64,000 nucleotides of DNA from Minisyncoccota bacterium (GCA_041658985.1 JBAZZC010000001.1:65813-129812); one strand, 5' to 3'; shown: positions 349 through 33,010, counted from the first letter of the stretch. The notes: a model not told the origin generated them from the sequence alone. Program-made: numbers and translations.

Positions 349-705
349 ATGCCGGTAGTAAAAGTGTGGTGTCTTCCAGCAGATCTTTCGGAAGACACCC
401 TGCGAGCAATCCACAAAAGCATCGTCACAGCCACCATGTCCGTGAAGGAGTTTGGGGTTACTGACGAGAAGTCAATGACCACACTGTTCCCGAAGGATAT
501 GATGGTCTACGGTCTTGGAACCGAAATCGTCATCGAGGTCCTGTCGAGAAGGTCCAGTAGGGTTCAATCGATAACGAGAGCCCGTCTGGCTATGGTTCTG
601 GTATCGGCCGTGTGCGAGTTCTTCCCCAAGGCCATGGTGGAATGTCTCGTTCTTCCATTCAGTGAGGAAGACGGCTTCTACCACCTGGACGCACCGAGGT
701 GTTGA
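349..705 (+). CDS. hypothetical protein encoded in a GC-rich island (island A)
   Basis: 118-aa ORF with balanced amino-acid composition; strong SD (aaggagag) 8 nt upstream of ATG; TTGACA at 283-288; composition visibly G+C-rich relative to flanks; followed by hairpin terminator. Confidence 0.45.
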   Translation: MPVVKVWCLPADLSEDTLRAIHKSIVTATMSVKEFGVTDEKSMTTLFPKDMMVYGLGTEIVIEVLSRRSSRVQSITRARLAMVLVSAVCEFFPKAMVECLVLPFSEEDGFYHLDAPRC

Positions 706-732
706 GAATTCGCAACCCGCCCGTCACTGGAG

Positions 733-760
733 ACCGCCCCGTCTCGACGAGGCGGTTTTC
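733..760 (+). terminator. rho-independent terminator-like GC hairpin (accgcc-N12-ggcggt) followed by TTTTCC
   Basis: stem ccgcc/ggcgg with gacga loop core, T-run; same motif family as the intragenic CCGCC-GAnGA-GGCGG elements. Confidence 0.5.
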
Positions 761-950
761 CATATCAAAATTAAAATTTTACTATTTTTGAATATTTGTT
801 ATACTCAAAACAGTTATAGAATCTCGTTGAAGTCGTATCTTTTTTGGAGCATCCGCAGGGAGCAAGCCGGTCTTGTCAACAACCCGAGCACACAGCGAGG
901 GCTCTTGACAAGTTGCGACTGAGGACTAGAACGAACTTTTCGCTGGAAAA

Positions 951-1580
951 GTGAGTGTCTCTAAAAAAGATACGACAAAAAAGAGACTTTATAATCTAAC
1001 AAAAAATTTTATGCTTATACCTACAGTTATTGAAAAATCCCAATTCGGTGAACGGGCATACGACATATACTCGCGACTTTTGCGTGAAAATATTATTTTC
1101 CTGGGCGGACCGATAGATGACGACACAGCAAACATTGTTATTGCTCAAATGCTTTTTTTGCAATCAGAAAATCCTAAAAAAGATATTTCCATTTATATAA
1201 ACTCTCCGGGTGGATACATTCATTCTGGTTTGGCTATTTTGGACACGATGAATATTTTGAAAAATGATATTTCAACAGTCTGTGTTGGTATCGCCGCTTC
1301 AATGGCCTCGGTAATTCTGTCAGCTGGAACAAAAGGCAAAAGATTTATTCTGCCAAACGCAGAAGTGATGATACATCAACCACATGGTGGAACAGAGGGC
1401 CAGGCATCTGATATTGAGATATCGGCAAAACATATTCTAAAACAACGTGACTTGCTTAATAAAATGCTTGCTAAAAATACGGGTAAGCCACTAGCTCAAA
1501 TAGAAAAAGATGTTGACCGTGACTTTTTTATGACGTCTGAAGAGGCAAAACGATATGGAATAGTAGACAAAATCCTATAA
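951..1580 (+). CDS. clpP: ATP-dependent Clp protease proteolytic subunit ClpP (likely true start ATG at 1011)
   Basis: LIPTVIE...[12 protein letters not shown]...IFLGGPIDD...INSPGG...catalytic Ser context [19 protein letters not shown]: classic ClpP motifs. Confidence 0.92.
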
Positions 1581-1747
1581 AAGAGCTATAATACCAGTAT
1601 TATTTATTTTAATTAGATAACTGGTTGTTTTTGTTTTTCTGTTAATATTTCCGTTCAAATCCAGATTCCTTAAAAAATTTTAGAGATACAAACTTACTTA
1701 TGATTGATACAGACTACATATTGAAAGAACTCTATATTTAGAACCCG

Positions 1748-1764
1748 CCTGCCGGCGAGGCAGG
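1748..1764 (+). repeat. intergenic copy of the short GC palindrome family (CCTGCC-GGCGA-GGCAGG)
   Basis: perfect 6-bp stem, 5-nt loop, immediately upstream of rny. Confidence 0.4.
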
Positions 1765-1792
1765 AAACGAAAGCGACGGTTGTTTGCGAAAC

Positions 1793-3322
1793 ATGTCATT
1801 AAAAATAGTCCTGCTGTTACTTTCCGTAGCCTCACTTATATCAATAGTGATTGGCTATTACTTGCGTCTCATCGTTTCTCTTGGTCAAAAAGGTTCAATG
1901 GAACTAGACCTCAAGAAAATGATGCTTGAGGCAGAGAAGAAAGAAAAAGCAATCGTTGATGAAGCAGAAAAAAAAGCAGAAGAGTTACTGAAGGTAGCTA
2001 GGTTAGAAATAAAACAAAGAGAAGAAGACAATAAAAAAACAGAAGAAAGACTCATTAAAAAAGATGAGCTTCTTCTAGGTAGACAAACCGAAATAGATAA
2101 AGAGGTAGAAGAGATTAAGAAAAGGATTGAGGAAATAAAGATATTAAGAGACAAGGCGTTAGCTACGACAGAGCAAAAAAAAGAAGAGCTAAGTAAAATC
2201 GCCAAACTCACCCCCGAAGAAGCCAAACAAGAAATTTTAAAAACAGTTGAGAAAGAAAATGAGGAAGATATTTTAGTCCGAATGAAGAAACTGGAAATGG
2301 ACGGCGAGGAAAGATTGGAAGAAAAAGCTAAAGGGATTTTAACTTCTTCAATTCAGCGTCTATCAAATTCAGTTTCATCGGACATGCTTACAACCCATGT
2401 CGTAATTCCAAATGACGAAATAAAAGGAAAAATTATTGGAAAAGAAGGTAGAAACATAAAAGCTTTTGAAAGATGTACTGGGGTTGAGGTTATCGTTGAC
2501 GATACGCCCGGCTCTATTACCATCTCTTCTTTTGACCCCGTCCGTCGCCAAATAGCAAAATCAGCCTTAGAAAAACTTATTGTTGACGGTAGAATTCAAC
2601 CAGCAAAAATTGAGGAAATGGTCCAAAAAGCAGAACAAGAAATCGCTAAAATTATAAAAGAAAAAGGTGAAGAAGCGGTGTATGAAACTGGAGTGTTGGG
2701 CCTCGACCCTCGTATTATTTCTATTCTCGGAAGACTCCACTTCAGAACAAGTTATGGGCAAAATGTTTTAGCCCACTCTATAGAAATGGCCCACATTGCC
2801 GGTATGCTTGCCGAGGAAATAGGTGCAAATGTCCAAGTGGCAAAAGCCGGGGCGTTGGTGCACGACATAGGAAAAGCCCTAGACCATGAGGTTGTTGGTA
2901 CACACATTGAAATTGGTCGAAGAATTCTCCAAAAGTTCGGCGCAGATGAAAATATAATAAAAGCTATGCAAGCTCATCATGAGGAATATCCTTATGAAAC
3001 ACTTGAATCAATGATTGTTCAGTCAGCAGACGCTATATCAGGTGGCCGACCTGGAGCTCGTCGAGACAGTATAGAAAACTATCTAAAACGACTAAAAGAC
3101 CTTGAGGCCGTGGCCAATTCATTTAAGGGTGTTGAGAAATCATATGCCCTACAGGCTGGTCGTGAAATAAGAATTTTTGTCACCCCTAGTGAAACCACGG
3201 ACCTTGAAGCTAAAAAAATGGCTAGAGATATCGCCCTTCGCATAGAAAGTGAACTAAAATATCCGGGTGAAATAAAGGTGACAGTCATTCGCGAGTCTAG
3301 AACCATTGAGTTTGCAAGGTAA
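1793..3322 (+). CDS. rny: ribonuclease Y (alt TTG start at 1784)
   Basis: N-terminal TM helix, long coiled coil, KH domain (IIGKEGRNIKAFE) and HD domain (HSIEMAHIAGMLAEE...LVHDIGKA). Confidence 0.93.
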   Translation: MSLKIVLLLLSVASLISIVIGYYLRLIVSLGQKGSMELDLKKMMLEAEKKEKAIVDEAEKKAEELLKVARLEIKQREEDNKKTEERLIKKDELLLGRQTEIDKEVEEIKKRIEEIKILRDKALATTEQKKEELSKIAKLTPEEAKQEILKTVEKENEEDILVRMKKLEMDGEERLEEKAKGILTSSIQRLSNSVSSDMLTTHVVIPNDEIKGKIIGKEGRNIKAFERCTGVEVIVDDTPGSITISSFDPVRRQIAKSALEKLIVDGRIQPAKIEEMVQKAEQEIAKIIKEKGEEAVYETGVLGLDPRIISILGRLHFRTSYGQNVLAHSIEMAHIAGMLAEEIGANVQVAKAGALVHDIGKALDHEVVGTHIEIGRRILQKFGADENIIKAMQAHHEEYPYETLESMIVQSADAISGGRPGARRDSIENYLKRLKDLEAVANSFKGVEKSYALQAGREIRIFVTPSETTDLEAKKMARDIALRIESELKYPGEIKVTVIRESRTIEFAR

Positions 3323-3339
3323 AAAGTACTCGAAACTTA

Positions 3340-3510
3340 TTTTTTGAGACACGCATAAAGCCCTGCTGGGCTTTTGCTATGCTCGTCAATCAAGAAAACA
3401 ATCTTTCTCAATACTGGCCCTTTCGCAAACTCGGGCTTCGCCCTCAAACAGTGCTTCGGGCTGGCGTACTTCGTCGTTGTTTTCTAATTGACTGTGCAAT
3501 GTCTCAAAAA
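3340..3510. repeat. ~170-bp intergenic repeat element, copy 1 (family also at 11051-11222 and 34254-34424)
   Basis: begins TTTTTGAGACACGCATAAA, core gctatgctcgtcaatcaagaaaacaatct...ttcgcaaactcg...cttcgtcgttgttttctaattgactgtgcaatgtct; ~85-90% identity to other copies by eye; inverted 16-17 bp arms (gtcaatcaagaaaacaa / ttgttttctaattgac). Confidence 0.8.
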
Positions 3511-3691
3511 ACAAGTTTCTCATTCTAACGAGAAAGAAATTTTGTATTTTATACACATCATCTTTAATCCACAGTCAATATGTTGCTTTAAAAAACCGTT
3601 GGTATATACTATTATTCATAGTAGATAGTTTGGACTTTCTGTTCGAAGGTTCCAAAAAATAAAATTATTATTAATTAATTACATTATTAAT

Positions 3692-3964
3692 ATGAATAAA
3701 GCATCTATCGTAGACGCAGTACACGACAAATTAGGTGGAACAAAAGTCCAAGCAGAAGAAGTCGTAGATTTAGTGATTGATTCAATCGTCGGAACACTCA
3801 AGAAAGGTGGTGAAGTTTCAATCGCTGGTCTTGGAATCTTCTCAACAAAGACACGAGCAGCACGACAGGCTCGAAACCCACGAACAGGAGAATCAATATC
3901 TGTTCCATCAATGAAAGTTCCAAAATTCCGTGCAGCTAAGGCCCTTAAAGAAGCTGTGAAATAG
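3692..3964 (+). CDS. hup: DNA-binding protein HU
   Basis: MNKASIVDAV...GGEVSIAGLGIFSTKTRAARQARNPRTGESISVPSMKVPKFRAAKALKEAV: HU/IHF family signature. Confidence 0.93.
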   Translation: MNKASIVDAVHDKLGGTKVQAEEVVDLVIDSIVGTLKKGGEVSIAGLGIFSTKTRAARQARNPRTGESISVPSMKVPKFRAAKALKEAVK

Positions 3965-4120
3965 TCGCCTGGTCTTTTTGTCCGATTTTTTCGTTGCTCG
4001 TTTTGTTCGCTCCCGCAGAGTACTAAATGTACACTTTGGTCACAAACAAAACTCCGCACTTCAAACTCGAACAAAAATCCTCAGGCTTGCATTTAAAAAA
4101 TTATTTGCGCGAATCAAAAA

Positions 4121-4142
4121 ACACCCGCTTGGGTGTTTTTTG
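4121..4142. terminator. bidirectional rho-independent terminator (acaccc-gctt-gggtgt flanked by A-run and T-run)
   Basis: perfect 6-bp GC-rich stem, A5 upstream and T6 downstream; lies between convergent hup and DUF3850 genes. Confidence 0.7.
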
Positions 4143-4143
4143 A

Positions 4144-4404
4144 TTATTTTATAGATATTATTTGGAAACCATATTTTTCAATATCTTCTTCTGACCACGA
4201 ATGCATATCTTTTGTTTTTAAAACAAATGTGATTTCTTTTTCAATTTCTCTACCAGTATATTTTCTGATATTCGGGTCCCACTCTTTTAAAACCAAAACA
4301 TCCCCCGCTTTACATTCCCAATCAGCCAAACGCAAATCAAAATTTTTTTCACCAGAAATAATCTTATCAAAATATTCTGGCCATGCTTTCTTTTCTATCT
4401 TCAT
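4144..4404 (-). CDS. DUF3850 (ASCH-like) domain protein
   Basis: MKIEKKAWPEYFDKIISGEKNFDLRLADW...VLVLKEWDP...YTGREIEKEITFVLK resembles DUF3850 family consensus. Confidence 0.65.
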   Translation of the reverse strand: MKIEKKAWPEYFDKIISGEKNFDLRLADWECKAGDVLVLKEWDPNIRKYTGREIEKEITFVLKTKDMHSWSEEDIEKYGFQIISIK

Positions 4405-6880: not shown

Positions 6881-6949
6881 AACATTTCTCTTTCTCCTCT
6901 ATTATTTTTGGAACTATTGGTGCAATAATTGGAATTTATTTTGAGCTAC

Positions 6950-6978
6950 TTGACAAAGAGTGAGTAACTTGTTACAAT
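6950..6978 (+). promoter_or_regulatory. consensus sigma70-type promoter (TTGACA-17-TACAAT) upstream of GC-rich island B
   Basis: TTGACA 6950-6955, 17-nt spacer, TACAAT 6973-6978. Confidence 0.5.
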
Positions 6979-6996
6979 ACACACAGACCAGGTATA

Positions 6997-7401
6997 GTGC
7001 TACATGCGTGGCCAACTATAACTTGGGCAACTGGAGGACTCGTCGTGGAAAGAATATTCCGATTCGAAAGGTGCCCCTGCGGGAAGAGCGTCGCGCACGG
7101 ATACTTCGTGGCCTACAACCCCAATGGTGGCGGAGTTCTGATACTCCCCATCAAGGTCGATTCCATCATGGCCGGCTGTGCTCTGATGGCACGAATGGCT
7201 TACATTTTCCGCGACCAGGACATCTCTGCGCTGGAACAGCAGCTCCACGACGTCGGCCTTCCCGAAACCAGGAGGAGTGCCGACGAGGACATCGAGAACA
7301 TCGAGGCACAGATCCAGGGCATGTGGAGACTTCTGGATCTGGCAGTCGAGGCCACCGGGGGTCTCACGGTCACGATGCGACACGTCGTCGTGAGGCCCTA
7401 G
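6997..7401 (+). CDS. hypothetical protein in GC-rich island B (frame choice uncertain; overlapping ORFs in other frames)
   Basis: 134-aa ORF with natural-looking composition; G+C-rich region produces competing ORFs 6960-7490(+) and 7000-7422(-); + strand favoured by upstream promoter. Confidence 0.35.
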   Translation: MLHAWPTITWATGGLVVERIFRFERCPCGKSVAHGYFVAYNPNGGGVLILPIKVDSIMAGCALMARMAYIFRDQDISALEQQLHDVGLPETRRSADEDIENIEAQIQGMWRLLDLAVEATGGLTVTMRHVVVRP

Positions 7402-7709
7402 GCCAGCAACACGCGCTCCCACCAGTTCCGTCCAAAGACACCAAGACGCCGACCCTCCTTCCTGGGGGGCCGGCGTTCACTTTTATATAAAACATTCTAC
7501 CAATTTTAAATTGCTTAGTTTCAAAAAAATTAACTGTCGGGGTGCCGAGTGAAAAGTCGTGAACCGACTTCGCAAGACCTTGAATATTTTGTACTCAAAA
7601 TGTGAAAGGTGTACTCCACGTAAGGAGGCAAACTCGGGCCGCATAAATTTTTACTAAAAAATTTCCACAGAAACATAACATGTTTCTGGAAGTTGTTTTC
7701 AACACTTCG

Positions 7710-7780: not shown

Positions 7781-7802
7781 ACGAATTTTTTAAAACAACT
7801 TC

Positions 7803-11222: not shown

Positions 11223-11755
11223 TGCTATTTTACGTAGTAATAAAGAAAGGTGGAAAATAAAAAACCGCCCAATAACCAGGGACCATTGCTACTCAATAGT
11301 CACTAATGATTGGGCGGTTGGGGAGAAGAGTCATCCAGCTATCCAAATAAGCCAGTTATAATAACGAAGCTCAAAATATAGTAGATAGTTGTAGGTTCGA
11401 TTAAGGCTGGACCTACCGAAAACCAGATGGTCTTCTAAAGAGAGGAGTCGCGAACTCCAAAAAAGAAATGCATTTCAAAACAAGGAACAAATTTTTGTAG
11501 AAATTCCGTCCGACGAGATATCGGACATCCAATCTACGTCTGATATAAGTTTATATTTTTTTAAAAGACATGTAAAGGACATTCCTAATCAAAAGGTGGA
11601 TAACTCCAAAACAAAATATTTTTAAAGTCCAATGTCAAGTTAATTGTGCCTTATTTTTCTAAAGAAAAAGCCGGGTCGTAAAACTCGGCTACCCTTGACC
11701 TCCAGGGTGAGGAGCTCTCTTTTGTGGAGAAGAGCAGGAATCCATGAGTACGATA

Positions 11756-12397
11756 TCACGTGGCAGAAGTCACTTTTGGGATAAAGTCTTGGAGGATTTG
11801 CCCCCAATTCTTTCCCCAAATCTTCTGCTCACCATCAACACCAACCTCGATATGACCAACTCGGTTAGTGCAAACAACTCGCACACCGTTGTTTTCTGTG
11901 CTTGACCGCTTGAAGCAATCAAACATAGCAGCGGCTGGATGGTCGTGATGATTCATGTCCGTCACCACCGCCACGTTCTTGACCCCGACAGACAGAGCCA
12001 GGAGAGCGATAGTTGTTCCGAGGGGCATCTCTTGCCCGACAAACCTTTCGCCTCTTGGTCCCTGCTGTCGCTTTGATGCTGGGACCATAAGATCGGTCAT
12101 CACAACATCAAAGTTGGCCTGCTTTTCCAGTTCCTTTGGAAGAACTGTGTACAACAGGTTATAGTACCTGTGAGAATCCTCTTCGGAAGTACCTCGTCCG
12201 GGGTAGAAATCACCCGGAAAACCAGCCTCCACAAGAAGCCGACGCAGAGTCCTTTTTCCAGCCTCGCAGTTCTCAGTCGGTGCCAGGGCGTCCTGCGCAT
12301 CGTCGTATGTCCCAACAATGGTCAACTCGTGACCAGCGAGGGAAATAGTGGCCGAGGTACGGTTGGCTTCGGTGTCATCAAATACTAGGATTTTCAT
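11756..12397 (-). CDS. hypothetical protein with receiver(REC)-like N-terminus, GC-rich island C
   Basis: MKILVFDDTEANR... and FDVVMTDLMVP (phosphoacceptor-like Asp context); strong SD gagaaggagagag before ATG; G+C-rich codon usage unlike neighbours. Confidence 0.45.
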   Translation of the reverse strand: MKILVFDDTEANRTSATISLAGHELTIVGTYDDAQDALAPTENCEAGKRTLRRLLVEAGFPGDFYPGRGTSEEDSHRYYNLLYTVLPKELEKQANFDVVMTDLMVPASKRQQGPRGERFVGQEMPLGTTIALLALSVGVKNVAVVTDMNHHDHPAAAMFDCFKRSSTENNGVRVVCTNRVGHIEVGVDGEQKIWGKNWGQILQDFIPKVTSAT

Positions 12398-12562
12398 GGC
12401 TCTCTCCTTCTCAAAAAACTGTCTACGAGATGTCTCACTCCATCATAGAGAAGAGTACATTCGTAATCTGACATAAGCTTAGCATAAGTTAATGTTTGTG
12501 TCAAGCATTTATTACAGAAATATGGCCAAAATAAAAGACCAAATAAATATTGTCGGGACAGC

Positions 12563-12599: not shown

Positions 12600-13388
12600 A
12601 TGAAAAATAATATAAATGTGGACCAAGAAAACCTTCAAGAATCGTTAATTAAATCTGGCCTGTCTGAAAATGAAAGTAAGGTATTTTTGGTATTATTAGA
12701 ACTTGGCCGTGGAACGGTAACACAAATCATGAGAAAAGCTGGGCTAAACAGAACAACAGGATATGATGTTTTAGATAATTTGGTCAGAAAAGATCTCGCT
12801 AGTATTTCTGGTAAGGAACCAAAGGAGGAATATCTGGCCGAATCTCCAGATAAACTTGTTTTATTGATTGAAAAAGAAATAAATGAAAAAAATACACGAC
12901 TTCAAAATATTAAAAAGTTGCTACCAGAAATGAAATCTATTCATAATATAGCTGGAAGACCGAAAGTAAGATTCTACGAGGGGATAGATGGTTTGAAAGA
13001 TGTTTATGAAGACACCTTAACTTCCCACGAAGAGATAAGGGCATATGCAACTGTTGATGATATGCACATGACTATGCCTTCATACTTTTCTACATATTAC
13101 AAAAGAAGAGTAGAAAAAAATATTTCCATCAGAGCAATTATGCCGTCTACCCCCACAGTAAAAGCACGAGCAAGTAGAGACTTAGAGGAAAAAAGACAAT
13201 CTAAACTCATTCCAGTTGATAAATATTATTTTTCTCCAGAAATAAACATTTACGACAACAAAGTAATGATTGCCTCGTGGCGCGAAAAACTCGGGATTAT
13301 TATTGAAAGTGCAGAAATCGCAGATGCAATGAAAAAAACTTATGAGCTAGCGTGGATTGGTGCTGAAGAGGAAAGTAAAAAATTATAA
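12600..13388 (+). CDS. TrmB-family winged-helix transcriptional regulator (paralogue 1 of 3)
   Basis: SENESKVFLVLLELGRGTVTQIMRKAGLNRTTGYDVLDNLVRKDLAS matches TrmB N-terminal wHTH; similar length/architecture to 18383 and 29994 genes. Confidence 0.65.
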   Translation: MKNNINVDQENLQESLIKSGLSENESKVFLVLLELGRGTVTQIMRKAGLNRTTGYDVLDNLVRKDLASISGKEPKEEYLAESPDKLVLLIEKEINEKNTRLQNIKKLLPEMKSIHNIAGRPKVRFYEGIDGLKDVYEDTLTSHEEIRAYATVDDMHMTMPSYFSTYYKRRVEKNISIRAIMPSTPTVKARASRDLEEKRQSKLIPVDKYYFSPEINIYDNKVMIASWREKLGIIIESAEIADAMKKTYELAWIGAEEESKKL

Positions 13389-18382: not shown

Positions 18383-19153
18383 ATGATAAATTTTACTAAC
18401 AATCAAATAGAGCCTTTACTTGAACTTGGCCTAACAAAAATTCAAAGCTTAATATATCTGACCCTACTCAATAATGGGATCATGTCCATACTAGAAATAT
18501 CTAAGGTGGTCAGAATAAATCGTCAGCAGATATATCAAAATTCAGAAATCCTACTAAGTCTTGGTTTTATCGAAATGGCCAGGAAAAACAAAAGGAAGTA
18601 TATTGCCTGTAATCCAAACAAATTATTAAGAATAGGAAGAGAAAAAATAACCAACGCAGAAAGTATTTTCGAAAACATAAAAAGTTCACTGCCATTATAT
18701 GAATCAATGGTACCAGAAGAAAAGTGGGGAGTTACAATTAAATATTATGATGGACTAAATAAGGTAAAAGAAGCTTATGAAGAAGAGCTAGATAACTGTA
18801 AAGAAGTTGAAGTATTGTCTCTGGTAGGTTCGGTTGAAGACATTTATAAATTTTTTCCTGAATCATACTGGAAAAAATGGAATAAAAAATTTAAAGATCA
18901 AAAATCATCAAGCCGGATGCTCGTACATAAATCAGAGAGTGCAAAAGAAAGTTCTTTTTTTGATAAAGAATACAACAGAGAAACACGATATCTAGAAGTT
19001 TTTCCTCTTAAAATAAACATTGATATATTTAACGATAAACTCTTGTTAGTCTCTTTCTATGACAAAACAGCGATTTGGATTGAAAGTAGGGTTATATCAG
19101 ATTCATACAGAATAATGTTTGAGACACTTTGGTCAAACAGCAAAAATTTCTAG
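18383..19153 (+). CDS. TrmB-family transcriptional regulator (paralogue 2)
   Basis: N-terminal wHTH LGLTKIQSLIYLTLLNNGIMSILEISKVVRINRQQIYQNSEILLSLGFIE. Confidence 0.55.
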   Translation: MINFTNNQIEPLLELGLTKIQSLIYLTLLNNGIMSILEISKVVRINRQQIYQNSEILLSLGFIEMARKNKRKYIACNPNKLLRIGREKITNAESIFENIKSSLPLYESMVPEEKWGVTIKYYDGLNKVKEAYEEELDNCKEVEVLSLVGSVEDIYKFFPESYWKKWNKKFKDQKSSSRMLVHKSESAKESSFFDKEYNRETRYLEVFPLKINIDIFNDKLLLVSFYDKTAIWIESRVISDSYRIMFETLWSNSKNF

Positions 19154-19310
19154 TTTTGTTGTATTTAGTCACACAACACAAATAAATGAAATCGCAGCCA
19201 GAAATAAGTGCCGTTTTGTATTTATAATTATTTAGTGTCTATTGTGTATTAAATAATCATACACTACCATATACTTATGAACGGAAATTATTCCAAGAAA
19301 GGGGGAGGCA

Positions 19311-19523
19311 ATGCCTCCGAGTGGGTACAGCAAGAAAGCAGTCGAAGGCGCTCTGCAATTCACCGAAGCTTGTTTCGAAGACCTTCTTGAGGAGGTCAGG
19401 TCGGGCAAGCACAAGGACATCGAGACGGCTCTCCGATTCGAGTTGAAGATCATCAGGAAAGCCCTGATGAAACTTCACATCACCCACGACGGTAACATTG
19501 TCGACAGGGAACCGATGGAGTAA
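19311..19523 (+). CDS. small hypothetical protein (70 aa), GC-rich island D
   Basis: strong SD aagggggagg; G+C-rich; followed by perfect hairpin terminator. Confidence 0.4.
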   Translation: MPPSGYSKKAVEGALQFTEACFEDLLEEVRSGKHKDIETALRFELKIIRKALMKLHITHDGNIVDREPME

Positions 19524-19528
19524 GACTG

Positions 19529-19557
19529 GTGGGCCATCTTACGATGGCCCACTTTTT
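19529..19557 (+). terminator. rho-independent terminator (gtgggccatc-ttac-gatggcccac + TTTTT)
   Basis: 10-bp perfect stem and T-run. Confidence 0.75.
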
Positions 19558-19653
19558 AAAATTTATTCTTTATCACGAAATTTTTTATAAAAAGAAATCC
19601 GCCCCAACGCAGAGCGAACTCTTTGTTAGAAGCGGGTTGTTTGGGCGACACAG

Positions 19654-20262
19654 TCAGATCGCCACGGCGTGACCGAGAAACATGGGGTCACACACATTCG
19701 TGTCCGGCAGTTCAAAGCCGTTGGAGGTGAAAATCCGAATCACCTCGTCAATTGCGAAAAGGGTAACTGTCAGACCCCCCACGCTTTCGATTTGCCTCGT
19801 TACCCCCACATTACTGTAGGGAAGGGAGAAGAGGCCCACCGCCCCCTTTTTCAGGCTCAACCGAAGTGAGCTGACAGCTACACCCAAGTCCTGTGGGGGA
19901 AGATGCATGAGTACCGCGGTCAGAAAGAAGGCATCGAAACGACTCGGGTAGTGAAAGCCAATCGTTCTGACTTCATCCACCTCAAACGCATGCCCTGGAA
20001 ACTTCCCTCGGCAGTGTTCGATCGACTTCTCCGAGGGGTCAATTCCGAGGTAACGGGTAAAACCGACTCGTTCCAGAAGCGGAACTGCCCGCCCGAACCC
20101 ACATCCGACGTCAACAACTTCTGGGTCTTCAGGCAAAGCCAGGAAAGCCGACATGATGAAGTCGTCTAGGAAGGCTCGCCGTTCCTCCAGATCACCTCGA
20201 CGAACCCTATCGTCAAAATGCTGGACGGCTTGTCTTTCTTGCTCTGATAAGGTACACAGCAT
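19654..20262 (-). CDS. class I SAM-dependent methyltransferase, GC-rich island D
   Basis: motif I VVDVGCGFGRAV, acidic motif II region; G+C-rich codon usage. Confidence 0.7.
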   Translation of the reverse strand: MLCTLSEQERQAVQHFDDRVRRGDLEERRAFLDDFIMSAFLALPEDPEVVDVGCGFGRAVPLLERVGFTRYLGIDPSEKSIEHCRGKFPGHAFEVDEVRTIGFHYPSRFDAFFLTAVLMHLPPQDLGVAVSSLRLSLKKGAVGLFSLPYSNVGVTRQIESVGGLTVTLFAIDEVIRIFTSNGFELPDTNVCDPMFLGHAVAI

Positions 20263-20351
20263 GAAATTACCTCTCTATATTTTTGAGGGAATACCTCTCT
20301 GGTCTCAAAATATCACAAAAAATAGTTTTGTCAACTTTTGTTATGAAATAA

Positions 20352-21268: not shown

Positions 21269-21577
21269 TTATCCGCACACCAATTTTGGCATTGTGTTTT
21301 TGTTGCTTGTTAAGTATTTATCACAAGGTGCTATTCTAATAGCTTAAAATTAAACCGCAGACATTGTGAAAACACGATGCAACTATGCCAAATTTGGTGT
21401 TCGGATTAATTATAACACGAACCAGTGTCGCACAATATAGATTGTTCAACTTAAAAAGTCGAATAATCTACGAATATTTTGCAACATTATCATGTCGCAA
21501 AATATTCGATCCAAACTATATGAAGAAGGGGTCCCACGAGAGGACCCCTTGAAACCCAAACAACACGTTCCCAGAAC

Positions 21578-21907
21578 CTACATCCTGAAATCCTTCAGAA
21601 CTGGCCCATGGAAATTCGTGTCTTTGGCACAAAATGGACAACTGGAGACTTGGAAGTACTTCCCATCCCAACTGGCTGGCACCTCCGCACCTGCCATATT
21701 GGTCAGTTCTGTCCTTCCGTCGAGAGAAATGGGGAAGACGCTGTGGTGACCTACACAGAAAACATTGATCACCTCCATCTTAGCTTCACCACGAAGAGGG
21801 GCAGTCAGTGCTTCCAAGTCTTCCGAGTTCAGATTTGCGTCATGAACTCGTCTCCGCGCATCGACACTACCAAACAGTTTCTCCGTGATTTTTTTTTCTT
21901 TGTCCAT
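21578..21907 (-). CDS. hypothetical protein (109 aa) with CPFC motif
   Basis: ORF abutting upstream gene 21910-22401; moderately GC-enriched. Confidence 0.4.
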   Translation of the reverse strand: MDKEKKITEKLFGSVDARRRVHDANLNSEDLEALTAPLRGEAKMEVINVFCVGHHSVFPISLDGRTELTNMAGAEVPASWDGKYFQVSSCPFCAKDTNFHGPVLKDFRM

Positions 21908-21909
21908 GG

Positions 21910-22401
21910 CTAATTCCCTAAGAACTTGACCACTTCGGTCGCTAGTTTCTTACTATAGTGTACAAATTGTTCTTTGTCAACTTTTCTATCAAGTCCTCCC
22001 TCCGGGACTAAAAATATTATATCAGCTTTATGTTCATCTTTTTTTGGGTTTAATGTGCAGTCAATAGTTACCATTTTCATGCTTCCATTGTCTCCAGTTT
22101 CAAACCATGCATCTATTCCTTGAAATACATCAAGAGGAGACTTTACAGACGTGTAGAATCTTAAATCTTTAGCGTCAATTCCTAATTCTTCAAAAACATA
22201 ATAATGAACGGTATTAGCAAAATCGCGTCCAGGATCAGTTGGATCTGAAGGTTGCATTTTTCTGAGCTGATTTATGATAACAGGGACTGATACAAACTTA
22301 AAACTTCCCTCATTTATGTGGGTCATTTCTTCGTAACGACTTTTGCCGAATAATTCCTCCTCAACGATTCCACCAGTTACACCAGATCTTTCAAATCTCA
22401 T
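21910..22401 (-). CDS. hypothetical protein (163 aa)
   Basis: clean ORF, no recognised motif. Confidence 0.5.
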   Translation of the reverse strand: MRFERSGVTGGIVEEELFGKSRYEEMTHINEGSFKFVSVPVIINQLRKMQPSDPTDPGRDFANTVHYYVFEELGIDAKDLRFYTSVKSPLDVFQGIDAWFETGDNGSMKMVTIDCTLNPKKDEHKADIIFLVPEGGLDRKVDKEQFVHYSKKLATEVVKFLGN

Positions 22402-27288: not shown

Positions 27289-27297
27289 GATTATTTC

Positions 27298-27330
27298 ATG
27301 GCTGTTTCAAAAATTTACAGTGCACAGATG
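27298..27330 (+). repeat. 33-bp duplicate of comM 5' end (30/33 identical to 27906-27938)
   Basis: atggctgtttcaaaaatttacagtgcacagatg vs atggctgtttcaaaaatctacagcgcacagaca. Confidence 0.8.
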
Positions 27331-27458
27331 ATACCTCTTAACGCATAAATTAGTTAACGTTTCGTTTGCTTGACTTTTTAAGACTACTTACTGTACAATA
27401 TTAGAGATTATGGGCTTCGGCCTCTGAGAAACCGTGTCGCAAGGCGCGGTTTCGTCGT

Positions 27459-27857
27459 TTACAAAACCCCTTTGACCATATTTGAAACTTTATCTGAAAG
27501 TAGGTTGTAATCCTTTTCATTAACAGTACCAATTTTTCTAAATAATCTTTTTGAACTTATGGAGCGAATTTGAGACAGGCAGGTATTATATGATTTTTCG
27601 TCCTCACCTGATACAAGAAAATAATACTTATTATTTTTATCTTGATTGGTTGTTGGCACAACCAGTGCCATATTTTTGTTAAATTTTCTTATAACAACAG
27701 CTGGTCTGAGAAAAAGTTCGTGTTTACCATCTATTTCAACTCCAACATTTACACCTGTAATACACCACCAGACCTCTCTCTCATAAAAAATAATTGGTTC
27801 TTCTTTTTTATCTGTCTGTTTTTTCTCCTCATTCCAGCTATTAAAATCTTTTTCCAT
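27459..27857 (-). CDS. MazF/PemK-like endoribonuclease toxin (orphan, N-terminally extended)
   Basis: REVWWCITGVNVGVEIDGKHELFLRPAVVIRKF...ALVVPTT resembles PemK/MazF fold signature; no antitoxin ORF upstream. Confidence 0.55.
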   Translation of the reverse strand: MEKDFNSWNEEKKQTDKKEEPIIFYEREVWWCITGVNVGVEIDGKHELFLRPAVVIRKFNKNMALVVPTTNQDKNNKYYFLVSGEDEKSYNTCLSQIRSISSKRLFRKIGTVNEKDYNLLSDKVSNMVKGVL

Positions 27858-27905
27858 ATTTATATTGTACTATAAAAGTTTTTGGTGTGGTAGAATTATT
27901 TTATT

Positions 27906-29493: not shown

Positions 29494-29522
29494 TTGACAA
29501 GACAACAATATAAGTATATAAT
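29494..29522 (+). promoter_or_regulatory. perfect consensus promoter TTGACA-17-TATAAT driving GC-rich ORF 29547
   Basis: TTGACA 29494-29499, 17-nt spacer, TATAAT 29517-29522; SD aggaaagagagg before ATG 29547. Confidence 0.6.
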
Positions 29523-29546
29523 ATTGGCAGGAAAGAGAGGTTAGAT

Positions 29547-29903
29547 ATGGTGACTCAGATTTCACTCCATGGTTTCTGGCCACTGAGTTTTGCTATCGCA
29601 ACACTCAGTGCAATCGGCACCCTCTATGGAATTTGGGGGTTGTCGATGTGGTGGAGGGGGAAGGTATCATTCATCGTCGCGGCCGCCAGCACTGGTTTGG
29701 TTTGCTACAACATCAACCCAATCACCCTGAAGCTGTACTCGCAAGCGCAGGCAGAGCTGGGGACATTCTGGCTGTGGGTCCTGTATGCCACCAGCATTGC
29801 CCTCTGGGCAACCAGTGTCCTGACAGTTCTCATCTTGAGAATGTTCGTCATCGACATGTGGGGCGACTGGCGCCGATACCGAGCGCGCCGGCAATCCGCC
29901 TAA
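29547..29903 (+). CDS. small integral membrane protein (3-4 TM), GC-rich island F
   Basis: hydrophobic helices FWPLSFAIATLSAIGTLYGIWGL, VSFIVAAASTGLVCY, FWLWVLYATSIALWATSVLTVLIL; strongly G+C-rich third positions. Confidence 0.55.
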   Translation: MVTQISLHGFWPLSFAIATLSAIGTLYGIWGLSMWWRGKVSFIVAAASTGLVCYNINPITLKLYSQAQAELGTFWLWVLYATSIALWATSVLTVLILRMFVIDMWGDWRRYRARRQSA

Positions 29904-29993
29904 ACTCACGCCCCCGCGTGGCCAAAGAGCCATCGGGGCTTTTTGGTTAAAAATTTTTATTTGGTTTGACACGTATGGTATAATACGCACAAT

Positions 29994-30749
29994 ATGATAG
30001 AAAAATATCTTGAAGATGCCGGGTTGAGTGACAAAGAGGTGAAGATTTATCTTCAATTAATCCAGATGGAGAACGCTTCTGTTGTTGATTTGGCAAATAA
30101 AACAAAAATCAAAAGACCGACTGTCTACACCATTCTAGATTCGTTAGCTAAAAAAGGTCTAGTGAGTGAAATAGATGAAAATAAAAAAGCCAAGTATGTG
30201 GCCGAACCACCAGAGAGACTAAAATTATTTATAGAAAGAAAAGAAACTTTCTTGGGTGAATTAAAAAATCGTTTTGTAAATGATATTATTCCTCAAATAA
30301 AAAGTTTTCAAAAGGAAACGGGAGAGAAACCAACGGTAAAATTCTTTTCTGGTAAAGAAGGAATCCTTAGTACCAATGAAGATGTTTACGACGGAAACCC
30401 TGATGGTTCTCCAATTTATATAATATATTCCAAAGACCTTCTTGATGAGGTTTTTAAATCTACAGAAACAGACAAATACAAAAATACAAGAACCAGTGCG
30501 GGAATTAAAGCAAAAACCCTCTATAATTGGTCAAAAGGTGAAAAAAAATCGGATGAATTAGCAGAAAGAATACGGGTTGATGAAAAAAAATATCCTTTCT
30601 TTGCTGATATAAGTATATATAAAGATAAGGTCAGAATTAGCGTATTAGGTAAAGAGCTATCAGGAATATATATAAAGAGTAAAGACTTTGCCGAAACATT
30701 TAAAAGCTTATTCAATCTAGCTTTTGATAATCTGAAAAACAAACAATAA
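29994..30749 (+). CDS. TrmB-family transcriptional regulator (paralogue 3)
   Basis: AGLSDKEVKIYLQLIQMENASVVDLANKTKIKRPTVYTILDSLAKKGLVSE wHTH. Confidence 0.6.
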   Translation: MIEKYLEDAGLSDKEVKIYLQLIQMENASVVDLANKTKIKRPTVYTILDSLAKKGLVSEIDENKKAKYVAEPPERLKLFIERKETFLGELKNRFVNDIIPQIKSFQKETGEKPTVKFFSGKEGILSTNEDVYDGNPDGSPIYIIYSKDLLDEVFKSTETDKYKNTRTSAGIKAKTLYNWSKGEKKSDELAERIRVDEKKYPFFADISIYKDKVRISVLGKELSGIYIKSKDFAETFKSLFNLAFDNLKNKQ

Positions 30750-30758
30750 ACACAAATG

Positions 30759-30797
30759 ATGAAGGCCCGGCCGGATGTTACTCCGGCCAGGCCCTGT
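30759..30797 (+). terminator. rho-independent terminator (ggcccggccgga-tgttac-tccggccaggcc + TGTTTGT)
   Basis: 12-bp GC stem after TrmB-like gene stop. Confidence 0.6.
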
Positions 30798-31383
30798 TTG
30801 TCGGGTCTCCCACAAAGGATGACCCTCGCTGCGTGCCCAACAACCCAGTGGGTTGTGGGGCACCTTGTAGCTAGTCGCCCATTTTCCTAAAACTCCTTCC
30901 AAAAACAGTGCCGAACGACTGACTGACCAATTAACTACGCTGGACTAAAACCCACTGGCCCTACTTGGGATGCCCTATTGCACCCCAAGTTCGCCCGCCC
31001 GGCTCTAGTCCCACATATCGCCTCCCTTATTAGTTGAGGTTGACGTCTCTAGGGGTAGTATACACCCTACAATTTTTTTGTCAAATATTGATTTCAAAAC
31101 AGATAAACTCCATGTCAATTTATTTTTAATCTAGTCAGTCTCAATTATAAAGCAAAGAGTGATAAATGGCCTTATTTAAGACTATATTCGTTGTTAGTAA
31201 AAATGACTTGTCAGTTTAGCTTGACAAAAAAAGGGTATTGGTATATACTATCTCTAGAATCAAGTTAACAATAAGTCAGACTGCTTTGACAATAAATAGT
31301 TTTCACTTCCACTTTGGCTGGCCCGGATCGCACACATTACTTGCGAGGGGCCCCAAAGTGGGAGTGAAAACTCAACAAATGGG

Positions 31384-31704
31384 GTGGATATGAACAAGGT
31401 CATCGTCGGCGTCGTGCTGGTGCTGGTTCTGACGGTGTTCGTTGGTGGGTGTGAGCTCAACTCAGTGGTGGTTCGTCACTACTGCGATAAAGAGGTTTCG
31501 TACAACCTCTGGAAGAAAGATTCGCAGTACTGGCTGAACCTCCACGTCGGCTCGGTTGGCGAAAGGGCTTGTGCCGTAAATCCAGACATGCCTCGAGCCA
31601 TCAACTTGCGACAGTACGTTTCCTCGGGCGAGGAAGCGGACAAGTTGATTGAGAGGCACCGGCGTGCCTACGCCGAGAGACTTACCAGACCGAAAGTGAA
31701 CTGA
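31384..31704 (+). CDS. putative lipoprotein (106 aa) in GC-rich island G
   Basis: signal peptide with lipobox VFVGGC; G+C-rich. Confidence 0.45.
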   Translation: MDMNKVIVGVVLVLVLTVFVGGCELNSVVVRHYCDKEVSYNLWKKDSQYWLNLHVGSVGERACAVNPDMPRAINLRQYVSSGEEADKLIERHRRAYAERLTRPKVN

Positions 31705-31838
31705 CCTCCCCGGTCGTCGTCGCCCCGTGTAGACCAATCCCAAGTCTACCGAGTTAGAAACTGGGACAATAATACTTCGGGGAAGTACCGAAGCGCCTAA
31801 CAAGCGGTCACTGTTCGTCTTCTGGAGCGTCATCCCAG

Positions 31839-31900
31839 AACTGTATCGAGATGTGTATCTCGACTGATGAGTCCTTCAATAAGTTCAGGACGAAACAGTT
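31839..31900 (+). ncRNA. type III hammerhead self-cleaving ribozyme
   Basis: AACUGUA^UCGAGAU-gugu-AUCUCGA-CUGAUGA-GUCC-uucaauaaguuca-GGAC-GAAA-CAGUU: helix III 6 bp (31839-44/31895-900), helix I 7 bp hairpin, helix II 4 bp, full catalytic core, GUA cleavage triplet. Confidence 0.8.
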
Positions 31901-32630
31901 GGTTCCTTAAAAACAATTTTCCGAAACACCTGCCTCCTTCTTGGTTCACTAATATTAAGTGATTCAAGAAGGGGGTAGGTATGCTACGGGCAGATACCAG
32001 AACCTCCATAATGGTGTGATTTGATAGGTACACCTGTAAGAGGTGTAAGTAACAGATGATCCACATGGCATAGTGGGTAACGGGGTAAGGCTCTCCGTGT
32101 CATCGTGTTACCACATCAAATGGGTATAGTGCCACGCCAAAACTGGCGGGGGACACTATATCAACTGGAGTACTCCAGACTGCCCAATTAGAGCTTCGGA
32201 AGGTTGTAGCTACCAAACCTTGCCCTGAGGAACCAATGTTCCTCGGGGTTCCTTAAAAGCAAATCACGTTGTGGTTTCCTTTTAAGGGAAGAGAGGAACA
32301 CGAGGATAAACAAACACCTAAGTTGACCTCCTCTTGTATGTGAATCTCTTCCCGTCATGCCGTTGTCTAGGTCAGTGCAGAGACCAGAGGACAAGAAGGG
32401 TGAAATACTCCGCCTTTAAGTGATAAACCCTCCACTGGCCCAAAAGGTCAGAAGGCGGATGGTGAGTTAAGTGACTCATCATTGGGGATTAAAATACGGG
32501 TGGCCACCATGTTCTACAAAACAAGGAGGTCGGCCAAGCCCGCAAAAAACACCCCGAACTGCACACGTTCTTTGGAGCACAGGCTCCACGATTAAGGCTT
32601 CCAAGCTACCATCGTGGAGCCTTTTTCGTA
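31846..32630 (+). ncRNA. candidate ~785-nt structured non-coding RNA with hammerhead-processed 5' end and hairpin terminator
   Basis: no convincing ORF on either strand; G+C-rich with many local hairpins (e.g. gaggaacc-aatg-ttcctc); bounded by ribozyme cleavage site and terminator 32578-32630. Confidence 0.3.
32578..32630 (+). terminator. rho-independent terminator, copy 1 of an identical 52-bp repeat
   Basis: ggctccacgat-N18-atcgtggagcc + TTTTTCGTA; identical copy 32951-33003. Confidence 0.75.
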
Positions 32631-32736
32631 TCTAAAATGTGTCCCCAGGAGAACTTGACTTTTACCACCTGTCTGTGTTATAATACAAGTAGGAGGTGGG
32701 GCACTACTAACAAAACCCACCGAAGGGAGTTAACAA

Positions 32737-32937
32737 ATGGCAAAGAAGAAGTACCGAAAGCCCCCGAAGGGCTCGGGGGCGGAGTTCCTCGCAAGACTCG
32801 ACTGCCATGCGTCGACGAGGCGGGTGGCAGACGTCGGTCTCGGCCGGGGAGTGACCAGGCGGATTCCTCGTCGTGAAAATCTCGACGAACGAGCGGGTGA
32901 TTTCGGGGATGATGAGAAGAAAGAGAGGTACAATTGA
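32737..32937 (+). CDS. small basic protein (66 aa), hypothetical; bracketed by identical terminators
   Basis: MAKKKYRKPPKGSG...; SD gaagggag; G+C-rich. Confidence 0.4.
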   Translation: MAKKKYRKPPKGSGAEFLARLDCHASTRRVADVGLGRGVTRRIPRRENLDERAGDFGDDEKKERYN

Positions 32938-32950
32938 TGTTCCTTGGGGC

Positions 32951-33003
32951 AACAGGCTCCACGATTAAGGCTTCCAAGCTACCATCGTGGAGCCTTTTTC
33001 GTA
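32951..33003 (+). terminator. rho-independent terminator, copy 2 of 52-bp repeat
   Basis: identical to 32579-32630. Confidence 0.75.
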
Positions 33004-33010
33004 TAAAAAT

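Follow-up and report, generated by a model that had tools for sequence, protein, structure and literature searches.

GC-rich islands at backbone junctions

The stretch analysed here, 64,000 nucleotides (nt) of Minisyncoccota bacterium DNA (GCA_041658985.1 JBAZZC010000001.1:65813-129812; below, the window), has a G+C content (GC) of 38.0% and contains the short GC-rich islands that are the subject of this report. Its 200-nt windows have a mean GC of 0.38 (sd 0.067, 99th percentile 0.565), and islands were called from 200-nt windows with GC of at least 0.49. Eight segments pass this cutoff (293-808, 6931-7589, 11664-12479, 19255-20305, 21491-21911, 29518-30047, 30681-31086, and 31252-33035), having GC of 0.47-0.53 vs 0.38 for the window and matching the positions given in a preliminary description of this DNA. 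The GC-rich third codon positions (GC3) noted there are also borne out: values for nine island open reading frames (ORFs) are 0.52-0.75, and the median over ORFs of 100 or more amino acids (aa) is 0.31. All eight segments and all GC3-rich ORFs are located in positions 1-33000, with no GC-rich segment in 34000-64000 and no GC3-rich ORF in 34-64 kb; the cassettes are grouped in one plasticity zone and are not evenly spread. The islands (numbered 1 to 7, with genes or units isl1 to isl7c) and their adjoining features are as follows.

239..808, plus strand: island 1 cassette; ORF 349-705 (118 aa, GC 0.53, GC3 0.63); promoter-like sites from the consensus scan at 239-267 (TTTACA-17-CATAAT) and 285-313 (TTGACA-17-AATATG); Shine-Dalgarno site AGGAG 338-342; terminator hairpin 739-755 with T-run
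6950..7490, plus strand: island 2 cassette; ORF 7045-7401 (GTG start, 118 aa, GC 0.59, GC3 0.75); promoter 6950-6978 (TTGACA-17-TACAAT, TG-extended); Shine-Dalgarno site GGAGGA 7033-7038; GC hairpin with T-run around 7447-7487
11664..12520, minus strand: island 3 cassette; ORF 11756-12397 (213 aa, GC 0.52, GC3 0.53); Shine-Dalgarno site AGGAG; hairpin with T-run around 11665-11690
12600..13388, plus strand: TrmB1 (GC 0.34, GC3 0.27); promoter 12563-12591 (12 of 12); divergent from isl3
18383..19153, plus strand: TrmB2 (GC 0.31, GC3 0.27); adjoins island 4
19255..19560, plus strand: island 4a cassette; ORF 19311-19523 (70 aa, GC 0.52, GC3 0.69); Shine-Dalgarno site GGGGGAGG; hairpin with T-run 19527-19557
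19595..20334, minus strand: island 4b cassette; ORF 19654-20262 (202 aa, class I S-adenosylmethionine (SAM) methyltransferase, GC 0.54, GC3 0.59); promoter 20334-20307 (TTGACA-16-TATTTT); terminator 19621-19595
21491..21980, minus strand: island 5; ORF 21578-21907 (109 aa, GC 0.49, GC3 0.52); promoter-like site 21980-21952 (TTGACA-17-TATAGT) within p163; hairpin 21529-21549
21910..22401, minus strand: p163, an AT-rich accessory gene (GC 0.36, GC3 0.28)
29494..29949, plus strand: island 6 cassette; ORF 29547-29903 (118 aa, multi-transmembrane protein, GC 0.55, GC3 0.70); perfect promoter 29494-29522 (TTGACA-17-TATAAT); Shine-Dalgarno site GAGAGG; terminator 29919-29949
29994..30749, plus strand: TrmB3 (GC 0.32, GC3 0.25); upstream of and co-directional with island 7
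30755..31084, minus strand: island 7a, an ORF-less transcription unit of about 298 nt and candidate structured non-coding RNA (ncRNA); promoter 31084-31057 (TTGACA-16-TATACT); 14-bp terminator 30795-30762
31221..31704, plus strand: island 7b cassette; lipoprotein-like ORF from 31384 or 31390 to 31704 (about 105 aa, GC 0.55, GC3 0.70); promoter 31221-31249 (TTGACA-17-TATACT); long hairpin in the 5' untranslated region around 31294-31372
31838..31901, plus strand: type III hammerhead ribozyme (Rfam RF00008 and lineage model R1)
31902..32636, plus strand: ORF-free, highly structured RNA of 735 nt, ending in terminator hairpin 32581-32632
32655..33005, plus strand: island 7c cassette; ORF 32737-32937 (66 aa, basic protein, GC 0.59, GC3 0.66); promoter 32655-32684 (TTGACT-18-TATAAT, TG); Shine-Dalgarno site AGGGAG; terminator 32954-33005, a repeat of 32581-32632 located 373 nt downstream of it (family D6: 67 nt, 91% identity)

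According to direct reading, the islands share one layout, in which an AT-rich promoter and a Shine-Dalgarno site precede a transcribed GC-rich body that is closed by a GC hairpin with a T-run. The consensus scan of the first 34 kb reports about 10 sites scoring at least 11 of 12, of which six serve island units and two serve TrmB genes. The near-consensus promoters that had been described are thus found for island 2, isl5, island 6, and three island 7 units (all at least 11 of 12), but those of island 1 (10 of 12), island 3, and isl4a are weaker. With promoters and terminators of their own, the islands qualify at the sequence level as independent transcription units. Isl5 and p163, which lies directly upstream of it, form an operon-like pair.

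Small genes are present in most islands, as previously stated. Island 7, however, is mostly non-coding and consists of the 298-nt minus-strand unit, the hammerhead, 735 nt of structured RNA, and two small ORFs. The gene in island 2 is now placed at 7045-7401 (+), in agreement with NCBI's call, and NCBI annotation of two Candidatus Paceibacterota metagenome-assembled genomes (MAGs) has the same genes, all as hypothetical proteins. Besides isl3, the product types are a class I SAM methyltransferase, a multi-transmembrane protein, a lipoprotein-like protein, a 66-aa basic protein, and three unknowns; no paralogy was found among island proteins. As for isl3, it is a stand-alone receiver (REC) domain protein with a helical insertion and was found to have a (beta-alpha)5 flavodoxin-like fold superposable on CheY. 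Its signature residues D7, D8, D102, T146, and K196 are invariant in 33 sequences, their equivalence to CheY positions being derived from order and spacing, not from superposition. The match to Pfam PF00072 is below threshold (E = 0.2, 12.2 bits vs 30.2) and confined to the N-terminal 40 residues; the domain is interrupted by the helical insertion, which is 45 residues long.

A scan anchored on the exonuclease III (ExoIII) gene yielded 80 loci, the nearest of which are MAGs of Paceibacteria and other Patescibacteria; the lineage is Paceibacteria, not Saccharibacteria. In loci L016, L025, L026, L027, and L028 (GC 0.39-0.53; related loci are designated here by L numbers) the backbone order is conserved: clpP, rny, S1C protease, RNHCP, tRNA-Pro, yraN, tRNAs, cca, xth, xer, rpsO, NYN, p293, dksA, comM, M23. 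The pairs M23 and ComM, Xer and ExoIII, and ExoIII and CCA are adjacent in L008, L016, L022, L025, and L028, with gaps of tens to about 400 bp, while in the window these junctions are filled by islands and non-backbone genes (TrmB1-3, DUF333, p163, and a 1366-aa repeat protein). Since ComM and M23 are adjacent in relatives (37 bp apart in L025), islands 6 and 7 together with TrmB3 are insertions, and for every island extra DNA is found at a junction that is closed in relatives. Other GC-rich islands occur at the same junctions in L016 (9485-10021), L009 (2377-3432 and 6811-7537), and L006 (1-420).

Presence and absence were called from three relatives about 90% identical in the backbone, including L088 and L148, where backbone identity is 86-95% overall. 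Islands 1, 4, and 5 are each missing from such genomes. Thus, L088 lacks island 1 (rsmE-clpP gap of 155 bp vs 720 bp in the window), L148 lacks island 4 (isl4a and the methyltransferase) together with TrmB2 (ExoIII-Xer gap of 22 bp), as well as island 5 with p163 (Xer-rpsO gap of 151 bp) and the 1366-aa gene, and the p163-isl5 block (window 21269-22521) is missing from L148, L150, and L153. Where islands are shared, their identity may depart from that of the backbone: in L088, island 2 at the orthologous site (GC 0.54) has 80% nucleotide identity vs 87-95% for the backbone, and in L148, the block of isl3 and TrmB1 has 95.3%, above the 86-93% of the adjacent backbone. AT-rich accessory genes vary too, with DUF333 present only in the window and p145 and a dCMP deaminase only in L088. 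No target-site duplications were found at the empty-site junctions, and neither repeats nor att sites shared among islands, nor an attC family. To judge from these comparisons, the cassettes are gained, lost, and swapped faster than the backbone. The promoter scans and the synteny of relatives also support the earlier view of the islands as accessory DNA with its own expression signals in a conserved backbone.

Two suggested signs of insertion fared worse. The att-like fragments at tRNA-Pro are an exact 37-nt copy of the tRNA 5' half just upstream of the tRNA (7745-7781 / 7803-7839); this copy and island 2 are on opposite sides of the tRNA, and L088 keeps it with one mismatch. Island 2 has no integrase, and a tRNA-targeted integrative island was rejected, as the repeat copies the 5' half, does not bracket island 2, and is conserved in L088. 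On either side of tRNA-Pro there is, in addition, an inverted repeat of 35 nt (7683-7717 / 7774-7808). Regarding Xer, it is a conserved backbone gene retained in relatives without islands, which argues against a role as island-insertion machinery. The frameshift reported in it is seen in the window, but it is a trivial 1-nt difference: three further assemblies of this strain have the full 305-aa gene, and in the window a missing T splits it, probably a homopolymer error or a rare variant.

The three TrmB-family genes have host-like composition, and all of them abut islands, which random placement would give in about 1% of cases; the adjacency noted earlier is therefore confirmed and also recurs outside the window. 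Among 34 isl3 loci with enough upstream sequence, 10 have a TrmB-like gene within 700 bp, divergent in 10 of 10. The TrmB2 orthologue in L009 (67% identity) adjoins the isl4a orthologue, and in L095 and L105, as in the window, a TrmB3 orthologue (50-53% identity) precedes co-directional hammerheads, which form arrays there. The TrmB adjacency is real but partial, and it suggests that these regulators probably control the cassettes.

Composition and relatives of the island genes

The isl3 family alignment recovered 58 metagenomic loci, of which 35 with at least 2.5 kb of flank were used. The average GC of the gene is 0.52 +/- 0.055 (GC3 0.59) vs 0.33-0.56 for the flanks, and it exceeds that of the flanks in 32 of 35 loci (Wilcoxon p = 6e-7). 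Gene GC hardly follows flank GC (r = 0.22, slope 0.24), whereas in ten backbone gene families, measured the same way, r is 0.88-0.99 and the slope 0.8-1.1. The contrast also holds between neighbours: GC3 of TrmB2 is 0.27 in the window and 0.44 in L009, tracking the host, while the adjoining isl4a has 0.69 and 0.72, respectively, and this is kept despite protein divergence between window and L009 of 33% for TrmB2 and 47% for isl4a. Accessory genes of the window are bimodal, with GC3 of either 0.25-0.30 or 0.52-0.75 and nothing between, and both classes occur inside apparent single insertions (TrmB2 with isl4a and the methyltransferase; the p163-isl5 pair).

Dinucleotide composition separates the islands as well. 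Their observed-to-expected ratio (O/E) of TpA is 0.41, compared with 0.72 +/- 0.04 and a minimum of 0.64 in 200 size-matched backbone samples. In the isl3 family TpA equals 0.45 vs 0.70 for flanking ORFs, being lower in 17 of 17 loci (p = 1.5e-5), and the depletion holds in hosts of 0.51-0.59 GC. GC-rich Paceibacteria backbones have TpA of 0.54-0.81 and CpG of 1.2-1.4, compared with an island CpG of 0.92. The island signature is therefore unlike the window backbone and unlike GC-rich Paceibacteria backbones. Avoidance of a specific toxin motif was rejected, as ACA occurs close to its expected frequency (O/E 0.98) and UAC is enriched; only general TpA depletion holds.

Regarding homologues, isl3 has 229, the best non-self identity being 55%, and all named ones belong to Paceibacterota, Vogelbacteria, 'Pacebacteria', or Patescibacteria. 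The methyltransferase has about 10 relatives at 42-55% identity and then nothing until E ~1e-6; two of them are found in CPR-like (candidate phyla radiation) small-genome ribosomal-operon contexts, between fusA and tuf (L086) and after rpsI (L087), and a comparison with 72,556 plasmids gives generic similarity of 25-34% only. For isl2, there is one real relative, in L088, and a candidate distant GC-rich homologue in L009 (13738-14112) with motifs shared by eye only, while isl4a has the 53%-identity orthologue in L009 (GC3 0.72) beside the TrmB2 orthologue. The isl1 family comprises 392 cluster representatives with a best identity of 58%. All four families with placed relatives are located on Patescibacteria or CPR-like contigs. 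Since the nearest relatives outside the species reach at most 55-67% identity in all four families searched, no recent donor appears among sampled sequences. PHROG and PADLOC searches of the island proteins give no match beyond a generic methyltransferase.

A calibration on 238 Paceibacteria backbone genes (host GC = 0.433 x GC3 + 0.245, r = 0.89) implies a source GC of 0.47-0.57 for island genes and of 0.35-0.37 for TrmB1-3, p163, DUF333, the 1366-aa gene, PemK, and HNH. Based on the homologues placed so far, the island families are CPR-specific and point to a CPR-internal pool.

Hammerhead ribozymes and structured RNAs

At gathering thresholds Rfam reports four tRNAs only on the window, and permissive scans add only the hammerhead at 31838-31901. 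Its local match to RF00008 is full-length but scores 40.6 bits vs the gathering value of 48.5 (E = 1.4e-7), with longer loops I and II probably lowering the score. The core is intact (CUGAUGAG...CGAAAC, GUA triplet), and cleavage is predicted after A31845 of the GUA triplet. A strict motif-and-pairing scan of CPR loci gave 17 canonical hammerheads, in whose alignment 99.6% of cells are paired and 13 of 16 pairs show compensatory changes, part of the pairing being imposed by the search regex. The full-length match and the covariation agree with a three-stem structure in which stems I and II are closed and III is open. Over 921 kb of CPR loci, the covariance model R1 brings the number of hammerheads to 39 by adding 22, and all 39 are on the isl3 gene strand; the window copy, which is in the R1 training set, scores 61.7 bits (E = 6e-14).

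In relatives, hammerheads are clustered in arrays on Paceibacteria contigs. L089 has six within 2.8 kb, L091 also has six, L105 has five, and L134 has four; the units measure about 215-1340 nt. The following arrays contain 3-6 hammerheads each.

L091 584-5324, same strand: hammerhead array
L089 1-2864, same strand: hammerhead array
L105 2344-5361, same strand: hammerhead array
L134 3948-5514, same strand: hammerhead array
L094 5030-5881, same strand: hammerhead array
L095 5199-6810, same strand: hammerhead array

Single small genes lie between consecutive ribozymes. The order X-hammerhead-Y-hammerhead-isl3, where X and Y are recurrent families, is common to L091 (host GC 0.42) and L094 (0.50), and different arrays are present at the same site in the related genomes L091 and L134. 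Array genes are mostly GC-rich (GC3 0.6-0.78), although some are not. Pfam finds only one REC domain on ten array ORFs, and no integrase, reverse transcriptase, or capsid gene is found in arrays. In prophages, same-strand hammerheads flanking single genes have been read as processing a long transcript into gene-length RNAs (PMC3088659). By analogy, array ribozymes would cut a long transcript into single-gene RNAs. A literature search found no published link between hammerheads and CPR.

RNA structure is exceptional in the non-coding stretches of island 7. The minus-strand unit of island 7a (31052 to 30755, 298 nt) has a minimum free energy of -141.7 kcal/mol and z = -8.4 against 200 dinucleotide shuffles, with no Rfam family and no match in the CPR loci examined. 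On the plus strand, consecutive 240-nt windows from 31200 to 33120 have z of -3.5 to -7.5 (those of island 7b being -5.8 and -4.6), and 31990 to 32635 (646 nt) folds with z = -9.0. Directly after the hammerhead, 31902-32636 forms a chain of about 10 near-perfect hairpins; it also has no Rfam family, and nhmmer finds no relative of it in CPR loci. For the island 7 RNAs taken together, one marginal 70-nt nhmmer match is reported, in L095. The non-coding stretches contain no ORF under genetic codes 11, 4/25, or 15. We regard 31902-32636 as a candidate large ribozyme-released ncRNA and 30755-31084 (-) as a candidate novel structured ncRNA.

Coding islands have a mean z of -1.94 vs -0.63 for the background (p = 4e-4), and a strong effect is seen only where island 7 is non-coding. 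That RNA structure might generally cause the GC-richness was rejected, given that GC and folding z correlate at only r = -0.18 across the window. Known ncRNA genes were rejected as the cause of ORF-poor islands, since Rfam reports only the tRNAs and, permissively, the hammerhead. Because non-coding units share the elevated GC and are bounded by promoter and terminator, GC-richness is a property of the transcribed unit and not of codon choice. Other structured 240-nt windows (z of -6 to -7.7) are located at 21281-21400, 3961-4200, 9481-9720, and 54241-54480, and the long hairpin downstream of isl5 is part of the island 5 insertion.

Origin and upkeep of the island signature

Several known systems resemble the islands in part. 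Phage morons (PMC3594210) are likewise inserted between genes adjacent in relatives, deviate in GC from their neighbours, and usually carry one small accessory gene with its own sigma-70-type promoter and intrinsic terminator. In contrast to them, the islands lie in a bacterial chromosome among housekeeping genes (clpP, rny, cca, xth, rpsO, pnp, and comM), with no phage genes nearby and no PHROG matches, and they have a composition that varies neither among unrelated cassettes nor with the host. Hammerhead clusters of prophages (Perreault et al. 2011, PMC3088659) share with the CPR arrays several same-strand copies with a consensus core that separate variable single genes. The CPR arrays, however, are chromosomal and free of phage hallmarks, contain the recurrent families isl3/REC, X, and Y, and have mostly GC-rich, UpA-poor cargo. 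The Patescibacteria genomic islands of PMC12455944, as far as the available text of that study goes, are similar in being found by composition and phylogeny, in exchange that is mostly intra-Patescibacteria, and in occupying up to 13% of genome length; that text describes no sub-kilobase single-gene cassettes, host-independent composition, or ribozyme punctuation.

Integron cassettes are also small, mostly single-gene, and variable between close relatives, and the likeness extends to the Xer tyrosine recombinase between islands 4 and 5 and to the repeated imperfect palindrome that brackets isl7b. Unlike integrons, the islands are dispersed, have their own promoters, share no attC, and are missing where Xer is retained. 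An integron cassette array was therefore rejected, given the dispersed islands, the lack of a shared repeat family, and the backbone status of Xer. As for retrozymes and viroid-like circular RNAs, type III hammerheads bounding units of a few hundred nt, the base-paired non-coding island 7, and host-independent composition recall them, but there is no reverse transcriptase, no repeated unit, and no sign of circular RNA, and the units are mostly protein-coding, so this is resemblance only.

The reading that we consider reasonably probable is a CPR-internal pool of moron-like accessory cassettes with an intrinsic, transcript-level signature. Such a cassette consists of a promoter, a Shine-Dalgarno site, a small ORF or structured RNA, and a terminator, and is located at an intergenic junction of the Paceibacteria backbone. 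Its signature is a GC of about 0.5-0.6, GC3 of 0.5-0.75, TpA O/E of about 0.4, and more RNA structure than in the backbone. In relatives, families are organized in same-strand arrays where type III hammerheads flank each gene and would cut a long transcript into single-gene RNAs. The window retains one ribozyme, in island 7, the other cassettes having their own promoters and terminators, and the TrmB regulators of host-like composition that are often found next to cassettes probably control them. Selection would act on the transcript: GC-rich, UpA-poor, structured RNAs with ribozyme- or hairpin-protected ends may resist AU-directed RNases, and long-lasting RNAs may be useful in cells with little transcription.

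Three other accounts of the anomaly have little standing. Metagenome assemblies can be chimeric, and composition shifts sharply at the island edges, as it would if GC-rich fragments of another organism had been mis-joined into an AT-rich CPR contig. However, exact-protein look-ups retrieve island-gene contigs from three independent samples (ERZ27249449 from ENA, SRR6484324 and SRR18595301 from Logan), and at the junctions of islands 3-5 the contigs from all three samples and assemblers match the window at 100% identity. In L147, identity continues through islands 6 and 7 to 32808. Over all these contigs the sole difference from the window is one T in the T-run near 21122. Orthologous islands also occupy the same sites in relatives, island edges fall on promoters and terminators, and eight separate mis-joins within 33 kb are not credible. 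The three independent assemblies sharing identical junctions thus leave a chimera with practically no probability and show that islands and flanks are contiguous. Recent acquisition from the symbiont's high-GC actinobacterial host, the origin first proposed, would suit islands that are compositionally foreign and variably present, and some CPR lineages (Saccharibacteria) do live on Actinomycetota. The present lineage, however, is not one of Saccharibacteria, actinomycete GC3 is far above 0.52-0.75, and an implied source GC of only 0.47-0.57 leaves such a donor unsupported. No island protein tested has an actinobacterial homologue, islands and resident genes use one type of promoter, and the named isl3 homologues are all from Patescibacteria. 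Homologues found only in low-GC CPR relatives had been named as evidence against foreign origin; they are indeed limited to CPR, but they form GC-rich islands there. According to PMC12455944, 83% of the transfers that Patescibacteria receive originate within Patescibacteria, and 1 of 131 donor events is assigned to Actinomycetota. Actinobacterial origin is close to refuted. GC-biased gene conversion at recombination hot spots might raise GC locally, and the islands do lie at junctions with evident recombination or turnover. TrmB1-3 and p163, though, are AT-rich inside the same insertions, at or below the genome mean, which argues against a regional bias expected to affect neighbours too, and GC3 elevated by 0.25 to 0.45 together with TpA depletion is far beyond gene conversion generally reported in bacteria; we consider this account very improbable.

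The serious competitor is constant resupply from an unsampled reservoir of about 0.5-0.6 GC, such as a CPR phage, a plasmid, another mobile element, or a GC-richer CPR clade, with loss or replacement preceding amelioration. Gain and loss among the ~90% relatives, island identity discordant with the backbone (95% and 80%), the different arrays at one site in L091 and L134, hammerhead-flanked genes typical of prophages (PMC3088659), and an isl3 gene that matches its surroundings in hosts of 0.50-0.56 GC are all in its favour. Opposed to it, no isl3 relative is found in 2.9 million viral contigs and no phage DNA match to island 7. In 118 viral loci with a hammerhead core there is no island or array protein, the matches being translated ribozyme only, and the PHROG result is limited to the generic methyltransferase. 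Phage origin as such was rejected, having no support from viral contigs, phage DNA, PHROG, or PADLOC beyond that enzyme. The arrays without integrase, reverse transcriptase, or capsid gene, the lack of target-site duplications, nearest non-species relatives of at most 55-67% identity, dinucleotides that differ from GC-rich Paceibacteria backbones with TpA depleted even relative to GC-rich hosts, and TrmB2 equilibrated to the host next to an isl4a that is not likewise speak against resupply, which we hold to be rather unlikely. Selection on transcript stability is tentatively favoured over it as what may hold the signature, at a confidence somewhat short of even, because of the equilibrated neighbour, the TpA depletion in GC-rich hosts, the mismatch with GC-rich CPR backbones, and the lack of intermediates and of a sampled donor or vehicle.

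Several results weigh against a CPR-internal pool with an intrinsic signature kept by selection. Rapid turnover and backbone-discordant identity fit a mobile reservoir equally well. Distant members of the isl3 family (26-39% identity) show no GC elevation, which may confine the signature to a subfamily, and isl1, isl5, isl6, isl7a, and isl7b have no homologues with taxonomy or genomic context. The window contains a single hammerhead and none beside islands 1-6, some genes inside the arrays of relatives are AT-rich, and among the 12 ribozyme-bounded units with usable background only 4 exceed it by 0.07 GC. The link between ribozymes and GC-richness is therefore loose, and the equation of hammerhead units with GC-rich units, tried as a candidate, is only partly true. 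In addition, the excess of RNA structure in coding islands is modest, and TrmB-isl3 co-divergence gives rho = 0.01, all pairs being too diverged for power.

A compositional anomaly is usually read as the fading fingerprint of a donor, whereas the isl3 family keeps its composition across hosts of 33% to 56% GC. The step from deviant GC to recent transfer and to a donor guess would thus mislead in this lineage, and possibly also where other CPR genomes are searched for islands by composition. Hammerhead arrays, so far tied to prophages, are now found in CPR chromosomes with recurrent cargo (a receiver domain and two unnamed families) and recurrent TrmB-like regulators, by which the long-open question of the purpose of bacterial hammerheads can be tested in a defined system. 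Flagged as well are two RNAs that lack an ORF, fold very strongly, and have no Rfam family match. More speculatively, and with considerable doubt, the islands may be an undescribed class of CPR cassettes, often joined into ribozyme-punctuated arrays next to TrmB-family genes and shaped by RNA-level selection, not by the composition of a donor, towards a 'stable transcript' design of ribozyme 5'-OH ends, hairpin 3' ends, and few sites for AU-directed RNases. If so, ultra-small cells with very little transcription would keep particular messages alive, and island 7 would in addition encode new large structured RNAs, ribozyme-released.

Some minor observations concern the surroundings. In L086, the methyltransferase homologue and two small GC3-rich ORFs (7605-7832, 8001-8642, and 11501-11743) are placed in the str/S10 ribosomal-protein region, an unusual site for accessory genes, the small ORFs having GC3 of 0.67-0.70 vs ~0.53. 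The 1366-aa ORF of the window (13424-17524, minus strand) contains 11 repeat copies with ~117-nt periodicity; in L148, which lacks it, TrmB1 and ExoIII overlap tail to tail. The ExoIII 3' end recurs, in a copy of ~30 nt, at the insertion's far end (13384-13413), which looks like a duplication made by the insertion. A PemK-family toxin gene (27459-27857, minus strand) is bracketed by repeats of the comM start, the pair 27290-27352 and 27898-27960 representing the comM 5' end and its 63-nt copy (79% identical), which is placed upstream of the toxin gene.

An element of ~190 nt that resembles a miniature inverted-repeat transposable element (MITE) is present in three copies, 77-95% identical (3317-3516, 11027-11228, and 34232-34427); its terminal inverted repeats, GAAACTTATTTTTTGAGACA ... 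TGTCTCAAAAAACAAGTTTC, span 20-27 nt. One MITE-like copy is a breakpoint of short-read contigs (11188), and the 3317 copy is missing from L088. Upstream of clpP, 814-950 is a GC-richer leader of ~135 nt (z = -3.7) with a 75%-identical copy downstream of rny in L088 (3748-3879), the MITE-like site of the window; it is possibly a small mobile or regulatory RNA element.

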